30,989 nt of DNA from the IMG/VR virus record IMGVR_UViG_2537561692_000010. One strand, given 5' to 3'. Positions 565 through 7,392 of this stretch are shown piece by piece. The notes beneath the pieces were generated by a model. The model was not told the origin of the DNA. It searched no databases and worked only from the letters and a program-made list of their open reading frames with translations. The number at the start of each line of letters is the position of its first letter. The first letter of the stretch is position 1. The DNA comes from a virus. Lineage: Duplodnaviria; Heunggongvirae; Uroviricota; Caudoviricetes. A program made the position numbers and the translations under genes.

Positions 565-2568
565 ATGATTATGAGTGAAAATGATACAACCCCAAAGAAG
601 TCTACAAGCCAGGTTAACAAAGCGGTATTCTTTACATCTGCTTTGCTAATTTTCCTTCTTGTCGCCTTTGCCGCCGTATTCCCGGATGTCGCCGACAAAA
701 ATTTTAAACTACTTCAGCAACAAATCTTCACGAATGCCAGCTGGTTCTACATACTTGCTGTGGCCCTGATTTTACTGAGCGTCACGTTCCTTGGACTCTC
801 ACGTTACGGTGATATAAAGCTGGGCCCAGACCATGCGCAGCCTGATTTCAGCTACCACTCCTGGTTCGCGATGCTTTTTTCGGCAGGGATGGGGATCGGC
901 CTGATGTTCTTTGGCGTTGCCGAACCTGTGATGCATTATCTTTCGCCACCTGTCGGCACTCCAGAGACCGTTGCGGCAGCGAAGGAAGCCATGCGCCTGA
1001 CGTTCTTCCACTGGGGTCTGCACGCATGGGCAATTTATGCCATCGTGGCGCTGATTCTGGCCTTTTTCAGTTACCGTCACGGTCTGCCTTTAACGCTGCG
1101 TTCTGCGCTCTATCCCATTATCGGCGATCGCATTTACGGGCCTATAGGCCACGCGGTTGATATCTTCGCCGTGATAGGCACTGTCTTTGGCGTTGCAACA
1201 TCGCTGGGTTACGGTGTATTGCAGGTGAATGCCGGTTTGAACCATCTTTTCGGCGTGCCCATCAATGAAACGGTACAGGTCATTTTGATCGTGGTCATCA
1301 CGGGGTTAGCGACGATTTCGGTGGTGTCCGGCCTGGACAAGGGAATACGCATCCTGTCTGAGCTTAATCTGGGCCTGGCGGTGTTGCTCCTGGCGCTGGT
1401 CTTGTGCCTGGGTCCCACTGTGCTTCTGCTGAAGTCATTTGTGGAAAATACGGGTGGTTATCTGTCGGAACTGGTGAGTAAAACGTTCAACCTTTACGCG
1501 TATGAACCCAAGTCGAGCAACTGGCTGGGGGGCTGGACATTATTATACTGGGGATGGTGGCTTTCATGGTCGCCGTTTGTAGGTATGTTCATTGCACGCG
1601 TTTCCCGCGGCAGGACAATTCGTGAGTTCGTGACTGGCGTGTTGTTTGTTCCCGCCGGCTTTACGCTCATGTGGATGACGGTGTTTGGAAACAGCGCCAT
1701 CTATCTCATCATGAACCAGGGCGCCACTGACCTCGCCAATACCGTTCAGCAGGATGTTGCGCTTGCCCTGTTTAATTTCCTGGAGCATTTCCCGTTCTCT
1801 TCCGTGCTGTCATTCATTGCAATGGCGATGGTCATCGTCTTCTTTGTAACGTCTGCTGATTCGGGGGCAATGGTTGTGGATACTCTGGCATCAGGTGGGG
1901 TGGCAAACACGCCCGTCTGGCAGCGAATTTTCTGGGCATTGCTCATGGGCGTTGTTGCTATTGCCCTGCTGATCGCAGGGGGGCTGAGTGCGTTGCAAAC
2001 CGTAACGATAGCGAGTGCATTGCCCTTCTCAGTTATCTTATTAATATCCATATACGGACTGTTAAAAGCCCTGCGTCGGGATTTGACCAAGCGTGAAAGC
2101 CTTAGCATGGCGACTATTGCTCCTACGGCTGCACGTAACCCAATTCCCTGGCAGAGAAGGTTACGCAATATCGCGTATTTGCCGAAGCGCTCTCTTGTGA
2201 AACGTTTTATGGACGACATTATCCAACCCGCCATGACGCTGGTTCAGGAGGAACTTAACAAGCAGGGAACGATAAGCCACATCAGTGACGCCGCCGAGGA
2301 TCGTATTCGCCTTGAAGTCGATTTGGGCAACGAGCTGAATTATATATATGAAGTGAGGCTTCGCGGGTATAACTCACCGACCTTCGCGCTCGCTGCGCTG
2401 GATAATGATGAGCAGCAGAGTGAACAACATCGATATTATCGCGCTGAAGTCTATCTCAAAGAGGGCGGCCAAAATTATGATGTAATGGGCTGGAATCAGG
2501 AACAGCTGATTAATGACATACTGGACCAGTACGAAAAACACCTGCACTTCCTGCATCTGGTTCGTTAA
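565..2568 (+). CDS. BCCT-family transporter, BetT-like (choline/betaine/carnitine), 667 aa
   Basis: Multi-TM protein with the BCCT tryptophan signature WTLLYWGWWLSWSPFVGMF and a long cytoplasmic C-terminal tail as in BetT. Recognisably paralogous to, but clearly different from, E. coli BetT as I recall it. Confidence 0.85.
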   Translation: MIMSENDTTPKKSTSQVNKAVFFTSALLIFLLVAFAAVFPDVADKNFKLLQQQIFTNASWFYILAVALILLSVTFLGLSRYGDIKLGPDHAQPDFSYHSWFAMLFSAGMGIGLMFFGVAEPVMHYLSPPVGTPETVAAAKEAMRLTFFHWGLHAWAIYAIVALILAFFSYRHGLPLTLRSALYPIIGDRIYGPIGHAVDIFAVIGTVFGVATSLGYGVLQVNAGLNHLFGVPINETVQVILIVVITGLATISVVSGLDKGIRILSELNLGLAVLLLALVLCLGPTVLLLKSFVENTGGYLSELVSKTFNLYAYEPKSSNWLGGWTLLYWGWWLSWSPFVGMFIARVSRGRTIREFVTGVLFVPAGFTLMWMTVFGNSAIYLIMNQGATDLANTVQQDVALALFNFLEHFPFSSVLSFIAMAMVIVFFVTSADSGAMVVDTLASGGVANTPVWQRIFWALLMGVVAIALLIAGGLSALQTVTIASALPFSVILLISIYGLLKALRRDLTKRESLSMATIAPTAARNPIPWQRRLRNIAYLPKRSLVKRFMDDIIQPAMTLVQEELNKQGTISHISDAAEDRIRLEVDLGNELNYIYEVRLRGYNSPTFALAALDNDEQQSEQHRYYRAEVYLKEGGQNYDVMGWNQEQLINDILDQYEKHLHFLHLVR

Positions 2569-2616
2569 CAGCAACATGCCGCCACAGAGGCGGCATTTAT
2601 TTATCCCGGCTGCAAT

Positions 2617-3909
2617 ATGAGGGAATGCAGAATGATTTCACGCTGGAAATGGATGCTGAAGCAGACATTTAAAAAACTATGGTTCAGGGCAACGTTATTC
2701 GCAATTGTCGCAATAATAACGGCCCTTTTATCAATTCTTTTTAAATCAATGATACCTGAGTCGGTTTCCGTGAAGGTTGGTGCGGAAGCAGTCGATAACA
2801 TTCTGAACATACTGGCATCGAGTATGCTGGCAGTGACCACATTTTCGCTGAGCATCATGGTCACAGCCTACGGTTCAGCCACTACTAATGTGACTCCCAG
2901 AGCTACTCGTTTAGTTGTTGAAGACGTCACCACACAAAATGTACTGGCCACCTTCATCGGTTCTTTTCTCTTCAGTCTGGTAGGGATTATTGCCCTCAAT
3001 ATGGGAGCTTATGGAGAAAGGGGGAGAGTCATTTTATTCATTGTAACACTGGTTGTCATTGCCTTAATCCTCATCACATTGCTTCGCTGGATACAGCATT
3101 TGACCTCTCTGGGGAGGGTTGGTGAGACAACGGCAAAAGTAGAACAGGCGGCCATCGAAACATTTATTGCGAGAGCAAGAAATCCCTGTCTCGGCGGATA
3201 TCCATGGCTTGAGAACAATGAACAGCCGAAAGGAACGGTTGCAGTTTATCCGAAAAAGATTGGCTATGTTGAATATGTTGATATGGTGAAACTCAGCAAG
3301 CTGCTGACCAATGATCCCCGTCATGTATACCTCGTGGCGCAGCCGGGCAGTTTCATACATCCGTCCACGCCAGTTTTGTACCTGAGTCAGGGCCAGGAGT
3401 CATCAATCAGCACCGATTTACTTGAGACGATTATTGTCTCGGATGTACGTTCATTTGCTCAGGACCCCCGATTTTGTCTTAGCGTCATGGCCGAAATAGC
3501 CTGCCGAGCCCTTTCCCCCGCAGTGAACGATCCTGGAACCGCCATTGATGTCATTGGCAGAGGTGTACGTATACTTTCCGCTTACGCGCAGAATAAATCT
3601 GATGAAATAGAAGTGAAATATCCTTCTGTACATGTTGCACCACTTCAGAATAACGATCTACTTGAAGACTTTTTCTCACCTGTTGCGCGCGATGGTGCCA
3701 GTATGAGGGAAATTCAGATAAGGGTCCTTAAAGGACTGTCGATGCTGAGTAAGGGTTGGCCTGGAATTTTTGCTGAAGCCGCACAAACCCTAGCATTTGA
3801 AACATTAGAGCATGCTACTCGTGCTGACCATATAGATTCTGACAGATATCTAATAAAATCAATTTATTATAATTTATTTAGTGGCGAAGATTCTAATAAA
3901 AAACCATAG
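2617..3909 (+). CDS. DUF2254-like membrane protein, 430 aa
   Basis: ORF 26 nt downstream of the transporter stop. N-terminal half has several hydrophobic helices, C-terminal half is soluble. Family assignment is from memory of DUF2254 architecture, not a search. True start may be the internal Met at 2632 (MISRW...). Confidence 0.6.
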   Translation: MRECRMISRWKWMLKQTFKKLWFRATLFAIVAIITALLSILFKSMIPESVSVKVGAEAVDNILNILASSMLAVTTFSLSIMVTAYGSATTNVTPRATRLVVEDVTTQNVLATFIGSFLFSLVGIIALNMGAYGERGRVILFIVTLVVIALILITLLRWIQHLTSLGRVGETTAKVEQAAIETFIARARNPCLGGYPWLENNEQPKGTVAVYPKKIGYVEYVDMVKLSKLLTNDPRHVYLVAQPGSFIHPSTPVLYLSQGQESSISTDLLETIIVSDVRSFAQDPRFCLSVMAEIACRALSPAVNDPGTAIDVIGRGVRILSAYAQNKSDEIEVKYPSVHVAPLQNNDLLEDFFSPVARDGASMREIQIRVLKGLSMLSKGWPGIFAEAAQTLAFETLEHATRADHIDSDRYLIKSIYYNLFSGEDSNKKP

Positions 3910-4191
3910 TTGCGGAGCAAGCGATACGGTTGTTGGCAAGTCAAGGGCAAAGCATTCGCGTGAGAGTGGGCGTCTGCTTTGTGCCAGAAGCGGACATTGC
4001 GGCGTTACGGCACGTTAGGTCAGATATTTAAATGCACATGGTCCGCTTGTGGCGGAAGGATACTTACAAGAGTTGGTGAGAGATAGTAAAATCAATATGA
4101 AAATTAAAATTCGGCAATAATTCCTGATATAGTCATCTTAATGAACATAAAAACTATCACAATAGGATAGTTTTTATGTCATACTTGTTAG

Positions 4192-4887
4192 TTAATCACT
4201 TAAGGAATGAAGTGAGGCTCGTTGTGCAGAGGTTAAGCTAAGGAGGATTTTTTCTCGATACTCAGGTGCAAAGGAAAAGAAAACATCAGGAAAAATTCTT
4301 ATGATAGTTGATATCATAGTCTTAACCACCTTATCAATCACCTTCGAAATATTATCTATTTTAACCAAGTCTATTTCGGGAAAAACATTTAAAGCTTTTA
4401 TGTGAGCCATTTCTTTTACAGTAGCTGTATGTACGTGACTGCATAACGAAGAGTATTCAGCTTTTAAAGTTTCATGTAGTAGAGGATTTTTTTTGAAGAC
4501 AGGATGTTCCCCAGTTTGTTCAATTACCTTAAACAATGATTTTTCTTCAAGTATTGAAGGATCTAGTAAGCAACCGATTGATTTTAAAGAATTTTCAATA
4601 TAACTTCGCATCATTAGATTTGCTGGTTTGTATGCACCATTTATAACCATAAACATAGCTGTACCAAGGTCAGATGAAGCTTCTTGCAATCGCTCCAATG
4701 AGTTGGCGTCTATTTTCTCCTTGGAGAAATGATACAAACAGTAAACAAGGCACATAAAAGAATAATATCTCTTATGTATCATGCTTATTTTCCCTCTTGA
4801 GTTAATATTCTCGAAAACATTTTTTAATTTATATTCAGAGAAATAAGTAACTAACTCAGTGAAATCGCTGTTTACTTCTCTCGACAT
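4192..4887 (-). CDS. Hypothetical protein, 231 aa, third gene of AT-rich three-gene operon
   Basis: Long ORF in an AT-rich stretch. Its start lies 2 nt after the stop of the upstream 168-aa gene. No motif recognised. Confidence 0.7.
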   Translation of the reverse strand: MSREVNSDFTELVTYFSEYKLKNVFENINSRGKISMIHKRYYSFMCLVYCLYHFSKEKIDANSLERLQEASSDLGTAMFMVINGAYKPANLMMRSYIENSLKSIGCLLDPSILEEKSLFKVIEQTGEHPVFKKNPLLHETLKAEYSSLCSHVHTATVKEMAHIKALNVFPEIDLVKIDNISKVIDKVVKTMISTIIRIFPDVFFSFAPEYREKILLSLTSAQRASLHSLSD

Positions 4888-4889
4888 TG

Positions 4890-5396
4890 TTAGTCCTTAT
4901 TGAATATATCTTTTATAACTTCATTCCAGTCATATATCTCATTTTGAGCGCTAGAAAGGTTCTTCCTCTCTTTTATTCTACTCAAAACTAGAGGGTTATT
5001 TGACATTGAATTGATAATATTATAAGCCTTACCTAAATCGGATGAGTTTTTCTCGTGAACGTCACACACGATTATGCCGATCATTTCCTCTCTAGATCTT
5101 TTTTCAGGCCTGCTGATTTCGATACCTAACATGCGTGCAAAATCATCTATATCTTTATTTTTTTGGAAGAGATCTTTGTCTAATAAAATCCTCGGAAGAT
5201 ACCCAACAAGGAAACCTTTAATATCATTTTTTTTGGACTTTGAATTTCTTTCGTTAACTTCTAAATTATCAGTATAACTATCTTGAAGTAATTCAATAAA
5301 GTTGATTCTTGATAATTTTTTTGAAATAAAGGAAAACTCCTCTAAAAAGTTTAACAGTTGCTTAATTTCTTTTGAGTTATTTTTTTTGTCAGTCAT
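4890..5396 (-). CDS. Hypothetical Lys/Asp/Glu-rich protein, 168 aa, middle gene of AT-rich operon
   Basis: Its start codon overlaps the stop of the ParA-like gene (ATGA overlap at 5393-5396), implying translational coupling. No recognisable domain. Confidence 0.7.
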   Translation of the reverse strand: MTDKKNNSKEIKQLLNFLEEFSFISKKLSRINFIELLQDSYTDNLEVNERNSKSKKNDIKGFLVGYLPRILLDKDLFQKNKDIDDFARMLGIEISRPEKRSREEMIGIIVCDVHEKNSSDLGKAYNIINSMSNNPLVLSRIKERKNLSSAQNEIYDWNEVIKDIFNKD

Positions 5397-6223
5397 AAGT
5401 CACCTACTCTAGAGAGAAGTTCGTCAGTAATTTTAGACAGCGAAAACTTCATATCCTCATCCGTTAAATTGTTAATAAATAAGCCTCTTGTTTGATTTCT
5501 TGCCAACTCAGTACGTTTGCTCAAATATGATTTAAAGATCTTATTACGCCAACGTTTTTGATTATTGAAGTAACGAAGACTTTCCTCATATAAATTACTA
5601 TTACCTTCAACCATATTAAAAACTATGCCCGCACATTCAATCTTAAGATCGAAATTTTCTCTCTTCTCATTTATAATGCTATCTAATAGATCGATACCAG
5701 TGATCGAAAGAGGATCGGGTTTGGCTGGAATGAGGTAATAATCAGATGCAATTAATGCGCTGGACATCCAAACTGATGGGGTTGGTGGGGTATCAATTAT
5801 GACATAATCATAGTCATTTTCATGGATTTTAAGAAAGCGTCTAAGCTTGTTTTCTATCCCTTCTCCTGGTTTCATTTCAATTTTATATAGCCCAAGGCTT
5901 CCGGGAACAATGTGAAAATTATCATTTAATTGAATTGGTGTTATATCGGCTAATTCTTTAGGTGTGTTAACTAAAGGACCAGTCATTGTAGATAGTCGAA
6001 TTTTTGAACTATAAAAAATATCACATATGCTATCGCCTCCGCTTTTCATATGTGCAACATATTTGCTTGTATCCATTACACATTGCGTTGCGTTAAATTG
6101 TGGGTCGATATCTATTAATAATATTTTTTGCCCAAGTTTATCTGAAAGATGATTAGCAATATTGGTAGCCAATGTTGACTTACCAACGCCACCTTTCATA
6201 TTGATTAAGCTAATAACTTTCAA
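5393..6223 (-). CDS. ParA/MinD/Soj-family P-loop ATPase, 276 aa
   Basis: Deviant Walker A MKGGVGKST at the N-terminus, followed by the IDIDPQ and VIIDTPP motifs typical of ParA/MinD ATPases. First gene of the minus-strand operon, with an AT-rich promoter region upstream (6224-6460). Confidence 0.85.
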   Translation of the reverse strand: MKVISLINMKGGVGKSTLATNIANHLSDKLGQKILLIDIDPQFNATQCVMDTSKYVAHMKSGGDSICDIFYSSKIRLSTMTGPLVNTPKELADITPIQLNDNFHIVPGSLGLYKIEMKPGEGIENKLRRFLKIHENDYDYVIIDTPPTPSVWMSSALIASDYYLIPAKPDPLSITGIDLLDSIINEKRENFDLKIECAGIVFNMVEGNSNLYEESLRYFNNQKRWRNKIFKSYLSKRTELARNQTRGLFINNLTDEDMKFSLSKITDELLSRVGDL

Positions 6224-6935
6224 TCTTCTTGCTCCTGTTTTGATTAACGCTAAGCTTTTTCATCAGCATTGAAATTTAACATGTGTTTTACAAACTTATG
6301 TCTTATCACTACCTTATCATTTTTTACATACACCATAAATATTTTTAACTAAAAATTTTTGGTTTTCAACCTGAAATCTTTATCTTTAAAAACAAAACAT
6401 TACAATATTTTTAGTAAGATACCTTACCTAATGTAATGTGAATGGCTCAATTTTGATTAACACTTAAGCTATGTTAATAATGGTTTTGTAAGTGTGATGA
6501 GGGTTCCATATGAAGAAGTGATTTCCCGAACAATACAACATGAATATCATCCTCGTAGTCGGTGTTTCTTCACATGAACTCTGTCGCAAATACGCTATAT
6601 GAAACGTGGCAAGATGAATGTACCTGAGGTTATCAATCTTAAACCGCTTGAGAGTACGCCCTGATCCTGCCCGTTGATAAACTAACTGCATTGTTTGTAA
6701 TGCTTCATCGGTGGTGAGAACAAGTTTCATACTTCCGCTTCTCGCTCAAAGCGGACTAGAAGGTTAGCTTGCGTCGGACTTGGCGTATTTAAAGAAGTAC
6801 TGGTGGTGACTGGTTGTTGTGTTCCATTTCTACAGAACAAAATCACAGAAACTATACCCAATAGTTGTATCTCATCAATGATGAGACAGCCTCATATTTA
6901 TCAGGACTGGTGTACGTCCAATACAGGAGGTTGTC

Positions 6936-7236: not shown

Positions 7237-7392
7237 ATGAAGCAGCAAAAGGCGATGTTAATCGCCCTGATCGTCATCTGTTTAACCGTCATAGTGACGG
7301 CACTGGTAACGAGGAAAGACCTCTGCGAGGTACGAATCCGAACCGGCCAGACGGAGGTCGCTGTCTTCACAGCTTACGAACCTGAGGAGTAA
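7237..7392 (+). CDS. hok: Hok/Gef-family type I toxin, 51 aa (HokD/RelF-like)
   Basis: MKQQKAMLIALIVICLTVIVTALVTRKDLCEVRIRTGQTEVAVFTAYEPEE matches the Hok/Gef family. AAGGAG Shine-Dalgarno 8 nt upstream. The track ORF 7180..7392 is the same frame with an N-terminal extension. Confidence 0.85.
   Translation: MKQQKAMLIALIVICLTVIVTALVTRKDLCEVRIRTGQTEVAVFTAYEPEE

Follow-up and report, generated by a model that had tools for sequence, protein, structure and literature searches.

The window analysed here is a 30,989-nucleotide (nt) stretch of DNA from the Caudoviricetes record IMGVR_UViG_2537561692_000010, and it carries an AT-rich block of three minus-strand genes (genes A, B, and C; Table 1) that is part of the cargo of a lambdoid prophage. 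It is likely that this block is a prophage defence and competition operon of the RemAIN type. Judged by its sequence, the trio is a separate, divergent clade of the RemAIN family, and is hence a system of an already known kind. The homology of the three proteins to RemA, RemI, and RemN follows from a pairwise comparison for RemA, profile comparisons for RemN and RemI, and shared synteny.

Similarity of the three proteins to RemAIN

RemAIN of prophage Gifsy-1 in Salmonella Typhimurium 14028s was reportedly described by Sargen and Helaine (Cell Host Microbe, 2024). Passages of later papers present it as STM14_3218-3220, composed of the RemA ATPase, the RemI immunity protein, and the HEPN anticodon nuclease RemN, with a role in phage defence (PMC13043305), and state that it stops both co-resident prophages and incoming phages from going through the lytic cycle (PMC12724215; PMC13492144). 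The variable region of Gifsy-1 consists of STM14_3218 (ParA-like ATPase, 840 bp), STM14_3219 (309 bp), and STM14_3220 (663 bp); it is required for RtcR activation, for which the presumed signal is a tRNA fragment bearing a 2',3'-cyclic phosphate, and its expression is left unchanged by mitomycin C (PMC9879122). The authentic remAIN DNA was located through lambda-Red primers 91 and 92 (supplement of PMC9879122), which contain the opening 33 nt of STM14_3218 and the closing 32 nt of STM14_3220. The primer 91 sequence was matched exactly in seven IMG/VR contigs, and the primer span in all seven was 1881 nt, as in the published coordinates. Two other candidates were rejected: locus L002 as Gifsy-1, as it is a Cronobacter-type prophage, and the L158 group as RemAIN itself, a close relative in which the gene spacing departs from the published coordinates. 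A literature search on the protein accession numbers found nothing, and the inactive ParA-like domains of vWA-MoxR conflict systems (PMC7159879), an AbiV paper, and a modularity screen preprint were considered and judged not relevant.

Gene A had been called a ParA/MinD-like ATPase in the first-pass annotation of the window, a call confirmed by its match to Pfam AAA_31 (1.4e-37) and by the retention of the Walker motifs (deviant Walker A NMKGGVGKST, A' IDIDPQFNATQC, and Walker B VIIDTPPTPS, all intact). It also matches CbiA (1.4e-18) and PHROG 164 (5.7e-60), and a tblastn search of A against phages returned only generic ParA proteins. The authentic RemA (279 amino acids, aa) and A share 34% identity over 207 aa in a pairwise comparison (E 1e-35), and the hidden Markov model of the A family scores RemA at E 1.6e-52. 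The motifs DPQFNATQ and NMKGGVGK are common to both proteins, the former being a motif of the subfamily.

Neither of the other two genes has a match in Pfam (E 0.1 for C), NCBIfam, or PADLOC v2.0.0, and thus C has none to a curated HEPN model. B matches PHROG 12497, of unknown function, and C likewise matches a PHROG without known function. Close homologues are rare among 5.8 billion proteins (12 clusters for B and 18 for C), and profile searches retrieved 207 clusters for B, all stand-alone proteins of ~165-180 aa, and, with a full HMMER search, 390 representatives at 50% identity for C, all ~235 aa. The two genes had been described as ORFans, which does not stand, as both belong to families with hundreds of members. 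Profiles of the two families found no matches among PDB sequences.

The AF2/AlphaFold model of B is all-helical (predicted local distance difference test, pLDDT, 74.5). Within the family S101 is invariant and sits in a (K/N)(R/K)S(R/K) motif, which reads KRSR at residues 99-102 of the window protein, with R102 often K elsewhere. For the comparisons to RemI and RemN, loci in IMG/VR were chosen by a RemA-like ATPase followed by an open reading frame (ORF) of ~110-145 aa and then one of ~221-235 aa, which provided profiles of 46 RemI-clade and 44 RemN-clade sequences. An hhalign comparison of the RemI clade to the B family returned a probability of 98.9% (E 3e-17), with RemI 14-125 aligned to B 55-164 and RemI ILLDKDLLKSNHDVKDF...VRSR lined up with B ILLDKDLFQKNKDIDDF...KRSR; on the basis of this alignment B is assigned to the RemI type.

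For gene C, the corresponding comparison of the RemN clade to the C family gave a probability of 99.7% (E 1.8e-25) over 208 columns, in which LRSMIEH...YINACHYVH of RemN aligns with MRSYIEN...YSSLCSHVH of C. With these comparisons the proposal of an unnamed, uncharacterised system falls, since the trio is homologous to published RemAIN. The AlphaFold model of C is wholly helical (pLDDT 82.8), and C is a putative effector with a predicted four-helix HEPN-like fold. Among 116 relatives of C, three match PF05168 (best 9.5e-5) and 13 match DUF5677 (best 1.2e-5). The residues R94, E98, Y145, and H153 are invariant in these 116 family members, and position 99 is N, T, S, or M (Asn in 86/116 and Thr in 19/116); the invariant H153 sits on a different helix from R94 and N99. 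It is a testable oddity that the family does not conserve the catalytic His expected of a HEPN ribonuclease (RNase), yet keeps a different His invariant along with a Tyr, an Arg, and a Glu. A tblastn search of C against INPHARED phages and a profile scan of genome contigs with the close C alignment each returned none. Ten contigs from gut metagenomes (L077-L086, e.g., L081 7974-8318) hold an ORF of ~115-150 aa that matches only the centre of C (residues ~74-157, 55-59% identity), and neither A nor B was detected adjoining these ORFs. They could be truncated remnants or a separate small family with an RSSIEN motif.

The likeness to RemAIN extends from the individual proteins to the architecture of the operon. 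Both consist of three co-directional, tightly packed, AT-rich genes in an accessory region of a lambdoid prophage, and both have the tightly coupled gene order ATPase, RemI-type small protein, and RemN-type protein; the authentic remAIN, at 1881 nt, has the same layout. The products are in each case a ParA-like ATPase of ~279 aa, a helical protein of small size, and a third protein of ~220-230 aa, which is a HEPN nuclease in RemAIN and has a predicted HEPN-like fold in the window. DPQFNATQ is shared by the ATPases, an RSR loop by the small proteins, and RSxIE...Y..C..VH by RemN and C. In the window, the A/B junction is an ATGA stop/start overlap and the B/C junction is a 2-nt gap (TAA-CA-ATG), so that the three tightly packed minus-strand ORFs, as first named, agree in coordinates and junctions with the ORF list and the sequence. 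A windowed calculation (500 nt) returned GC values of 0.29-0.35 across 4001-6500, compared to 0.45-0.48 in the left flank and 0.43-0.57 in the right flank, in agreement with the block having been described as AT-rich relative to its surroundings.

Conservation and genomic setting of the trio

The three-gene arrangement was surveyed in loci anchored on C, derived from species-representative genomes (using a 19-sequence alignment sharing LRSSIENF) and from metagenomes, and in eight loci anchored on B, which originate from Pseudomonas (three), Shewanella, Bacillus, Microbulbifer, Planctomycetaceae, and Calidifontibacillus. Counting the 43 C-anchored loci in which C is full-length and the DNA upstream of it is long enough, A and B are directly upstream of C in 41, with overlapping or 0-5 nt junctions; in the other two, B is divergent or A went undetected. 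All eight of the B-anchored loci contain A and C, and no alternative third gene was seen. Because the order recurs in 41/43 and 8/8 loci, the arrangement is conserved far beyond chance. The trio was found in Bacteroidota, Firmicutes, Melainabacteria, Proteobacteria, Planctomycetota, and Cloacimonadota; its GC was below that of the local flanks in every locus compared, and its neighbours almost never repeat (205 neighbours form 185 clusters). The trio is a self-contained, horizontally mobile cassette. The coupled junctions, low GC, and recurring order uphold the earlier description of one co-translated, horizontally acquired unit.

An origin as a type I (ParA-based) partition cassette left over from a plasmid, an integrative and conjugative element, or a plasmid-prophage, with A as the motor, B as a centromere-binding adaptor, and C as an accessory, is essentially excluded. 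This explanation draws on A being a genuine ParA/Soj-class ATPase with partition ATPases as its nearest solved relatives (pSM19035 delta and Soj), and on one copy of the trio (L007) that lies directly after rep on p11184 (NZ_AJ249644, 3664-5734), a 5.8-kb mobilizable Plesiomonas plasmid. The trio and the type Ib cassettes (ParA/ParF/delta with ParG/omega) are also alike in having a small deviant-Walker-A ATPase translationally coupled to a small partner that follows it. However, A does not reach the curated cut-off of any NCBIfam partition model, and the all-helical models of B and C, proteins outside Pfam, have no ribbon-helix-helix, helix-turn-helix, winged-helix, or ParB-like match. In the window and five other loci, no repeats of at least three copies occur upstream or downstream, only short matches in two copies, and in some loci a centromere would not fit (in L015 the next gene is 27 nt away). 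Nearly all copies are found on chromosomes or in integrated elements, the third gene is obligatory and has enzyme-like invariant residues, and the Salmonella homologue is, according to the passages of later papers, an experimentally demonstrated defence system. The lack of centromere-like repeats and of DNA-binding folds in B and C supports the preference, in the first-pass annotation, for defence-type cargo over a plasmid partition remnant.

The surroundings of the trio, for which the defence-context signal rests on ~60 loci, are in keeping with the RemAIN-type reading. In Bacillus sp. 7586-K a type I restriction-modification (RM) system is on one side of the trio and Wadjet JetABCD is on the other. 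In Pseudomonas the trio occurs near DUF4238 and an AAA_13 ATPase in islands with a P4-like integrase and DUF927. Elsewhere, AbiTii directly follows the trio, and an HsdR directly precedes it. Other neighbours include type IIG RM enzymes and AriA/PtuA-like ATPases, and genes of mobility are represented by integrases, serine recombinases, transposases, and conjugative-transposon genes. In another lambdoid prophage the trio lies near lambda P and RusA/Q. These RM, Wadjet, and AbiTii neighbours, together with a lambdoid prophage that carries IS3 and IS100, bear out the suggestion of defence-type cargo in a defence-island or prophage setting. In Hallella faecis (L015 5952-8911) the trio and an AbiTii gene are inside a capsular-polysaccharide biosynthesis locus (epimerases, pyruvyl transferase, and glycosyltransferases), and polysaccharide genes adjoin the trio in several other Bacteroidota and gut loci.

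A second explanation is that the trio is a toxin-antitoxin (TA)-like addiction module that mainly stabilises its mobile element, with C as the toxin, B as the antitoxin, and A as a regulator, and that has no real anti-phage role in E. coli. The RemI homologue is named as the immunity protein for the nuclease in the passages that describe RemAIN, and the trio is found on mobile elements of many kinds, including next to TA genes and on the small plasmid p11184, which also carries a RelE/RelB pair. Disrupted copies exist as well, two of them among the eight B-anchored loci. An IS21 element lies within the ATPase gene on a Pseudomonas chromosome (L088 6186-8644; the intact version is L089), the nuclease gene is frameshifted in a naturally inactivated copy from Microbulbifer (L092 9524-10247), and the ParA gene of p11184 is split into ORFs of 182 and 76 aa, either through a frameshift or because the old sequence is in error. 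Against this stand the classic defence-island locations, the restriction of phages and prophages reported for the Salmonella homologue in the same passages, and an ATPase that is strictly conserved and retains its catalytic motifs, which would be unusual in a plain TA pair. We regard a module devoted mainly to addiction as improbable; the addiction and defence roles are mutually compatible.

Within E. coli, 134 records from 133 of 5,426 complete genomes carry the 2.5-kb block with no less than 99% identity. In the annotated genome of strain 120899 the block is inside a lambdoid prophage, flanked on one side by genes of the replication region, IS3, IS100, a BCCT transporter, and a DUF2254 protein, and on the other by hokD, DUF968, rusA, and Q. 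The trio thus occupies a slot with the replication genes to one side and the nin/Q region to the other, and its strand is opposite to that of the phage early-right genes, an orientation typical of cargo expressed in a lysogen. The IS3 and IS100 insertions nearby, together with the Asn in C where the canonical HEPN His is expected, might be taken to indicate an inactive, decaying copy in this strain. The three ORFs are intact and maintained at high identity in the 133 genomes, and, because Asn and Thr are the norm in the C family and R94, E98, Y145, and H153 are invariant, N99 is a trait of the family and not a sign of decay. A decaying copy is therefore very improbable.

Proposed function and its limits

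By analogy with Gifsy-1 RemAIN, A, B, and C would act as one functional unit expressed from the lysogen, in which the RemN-like nuclease C would be kept inactive by the RemI-like B under the control of the RemA-like ATPase A. Infection by a phage or induction of a co-resident prophage would be the trigger that releases the nuclease, which would then cut the anticodon loops of tRNAs and leave 2',3'-cyclic phosphate ends. Cleavage of the tRNAs would halt translation and so block the lytic cycle. ParA-class ATPases are normally DNA-bound positioning motors. Should the proposed mechanism be true, the sensing of infection by a member of this class would be new biology.

Several observations weigh against the RemAIN-type reading. 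Compared pairwise, C and RemN show next to no similarity (BLASTP E 3.3, not significant), nor do B and RemI (E 6e-6 for 50% identity over a 24-aa core), such that relatedness of B and C is detectable only by profiles and synteny, and the ATPases are only 34% identical. A Foldseek search of the C model against the PDB had no significant match. The canonical HEPN motif R-x4-6-H is absent from the window C, which has R94-x4-N99 (R94-S-Y-I-E-N99) where RemN has R-x4-H (RSMIEH). The window B, at 168 aa, has ~50 additional N-terminal residues with a conserved F-x-EE-x-SW helix that RemI, annotated at 102 aa and ~127 aa as an ORF, does not have. The location differs, as the window operon is between the replication genes and nin/Q and the Gifsy-1 remAIN is in the immunity region. 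Lastly, the mechanistic details of RemAIN are drawn from passages in papers that cite the primary report, and this E. coli clade is presumed by analogy to share the activity, trigger, and tRNA targets of RemAIN.

Some of these differences may point to a mechanistically distinct branch, far more widespread than Gifsy-1 RemAIN, with another trigger, RNA target, or catalytic arrangement. This suggestion is based on the long RemI-like B with its extra helix, a C protein lacking the canonical HEPN His, the spread from Bacteroidota to Planctomycetota, and the occurrence in both defence islands and prophages; we offer it tentatively and consider it rather unlikely. Unlike RemAIN of enterobacterial prophages, the window clade extends across many phyla and also outside of prophages. 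Comparison to other HEPN systems (HepS, PrrC-type anticodon nucleases, HepT/MntA, RnlA/RnlB, and AbiV) reveals a similar design, in which a predicted four-helix HEPN-like effector is silenced by a partner, with a location in prophages or defence islands and the logic of abortive infection. The window C differs from their effectors in belonging to no Pfam HEPN family and in its non-canonical motif, and the regulator in the window is a ParA-class ATPase, where theirs is an MNT nucleotidyltransferase, an ABC-type ATPase, or none.

A RemAIN-type assignment would widen RemAIN from a curiosity of Salmonella Gifsy-1 to a broad superfamily of two or more clades. It would offer a function for genes that 133 complete E. 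coli genomes, many of which are from enterotoxigenic E. coli and other clinical isolates, list as a 'ParA family protein' and two 'hypothetical proteins'. It would do so too for hundreds of operons of this kind in other phyla, which present defence annotation overlooks (no PADLOC v2.0.0 match). Such operons may block prophage induction and phage therapy agents and may trigger the RtcR/RtcB RNA-repair response.

Locus features and the surrounding prophage

The operon's own promoter is presumed to lie in the AT-rich region upstream of A, where the sigma-70-like matches are no better than expected from shuffled sequence. Past the end of C, a perfect inverted repeat is likely a transcript-end hairpin, judging from its position and pairing; the stem is AT-rich and there is no clear T-run on the minus strand.

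Table 1 Features of the RemAIN-like block in the window
Feature	Positions	Strand	Description	Source
Gene A	5393..6223	minus	276 aa, TTG start, AGGAG 8 nt upstream; ParA-type ATPase	ORF list
Gene B	4890..5396	minus	168 aa; remI-like small helical protein, presumed immunity/adaptor subunit	ORF list
Gene C	4192..4887	minus	231 aa; remN-like protein with a predicted HEPN-like fold, presumed RNase effector	ORF list
Upstream region	6224..6480	minus	AT-rich, GC ~0.29; sigma-70-like sites 6369..6341 and 6477..6450; presumed promoter	
Inverted repeat	4145..4179	minus	perfect 14-bp stem, 7-nt loop, 12 nt past C stop codon; likely hairpin	

The prophage contains other cargo around the block. Between IS100/IS3 and the trio (571-3909, plus strand) are a BCCT-family transporter and a membrane protein with DUF2254 (Pfam 1.6e-92), cargo of a metabolic or membrane kind that is unusual in a lambdoid prophage. 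On the other side, ~1 kb from the trio and where the nin-region genes begin, is a hokD-type type I toxin gene (7237-7392, plus strand). Further along, a 427-aa ORF of low GC (~0.38-0.41) is encoded on the opposite strand (9819-11102, minus), with the Q antiterminator on one side and, on the other, a DNA methyltransferase with tRNA genes, a slot that is a frequent cargo site in lambdoid phages; the ORF is 'hypothetical' in RefSeq and is without a PADLOC match. Genes for tRNA-Thr and tRNA-Gly are downstream of Q at ~12918-13071, positions transferred from the annotation of L001, an identical locus (20919-21072). The presence of prophage tRNAs alongside a putative RemN-like anticodon nuclease could be relevant to self-tolerance or counter-defence.

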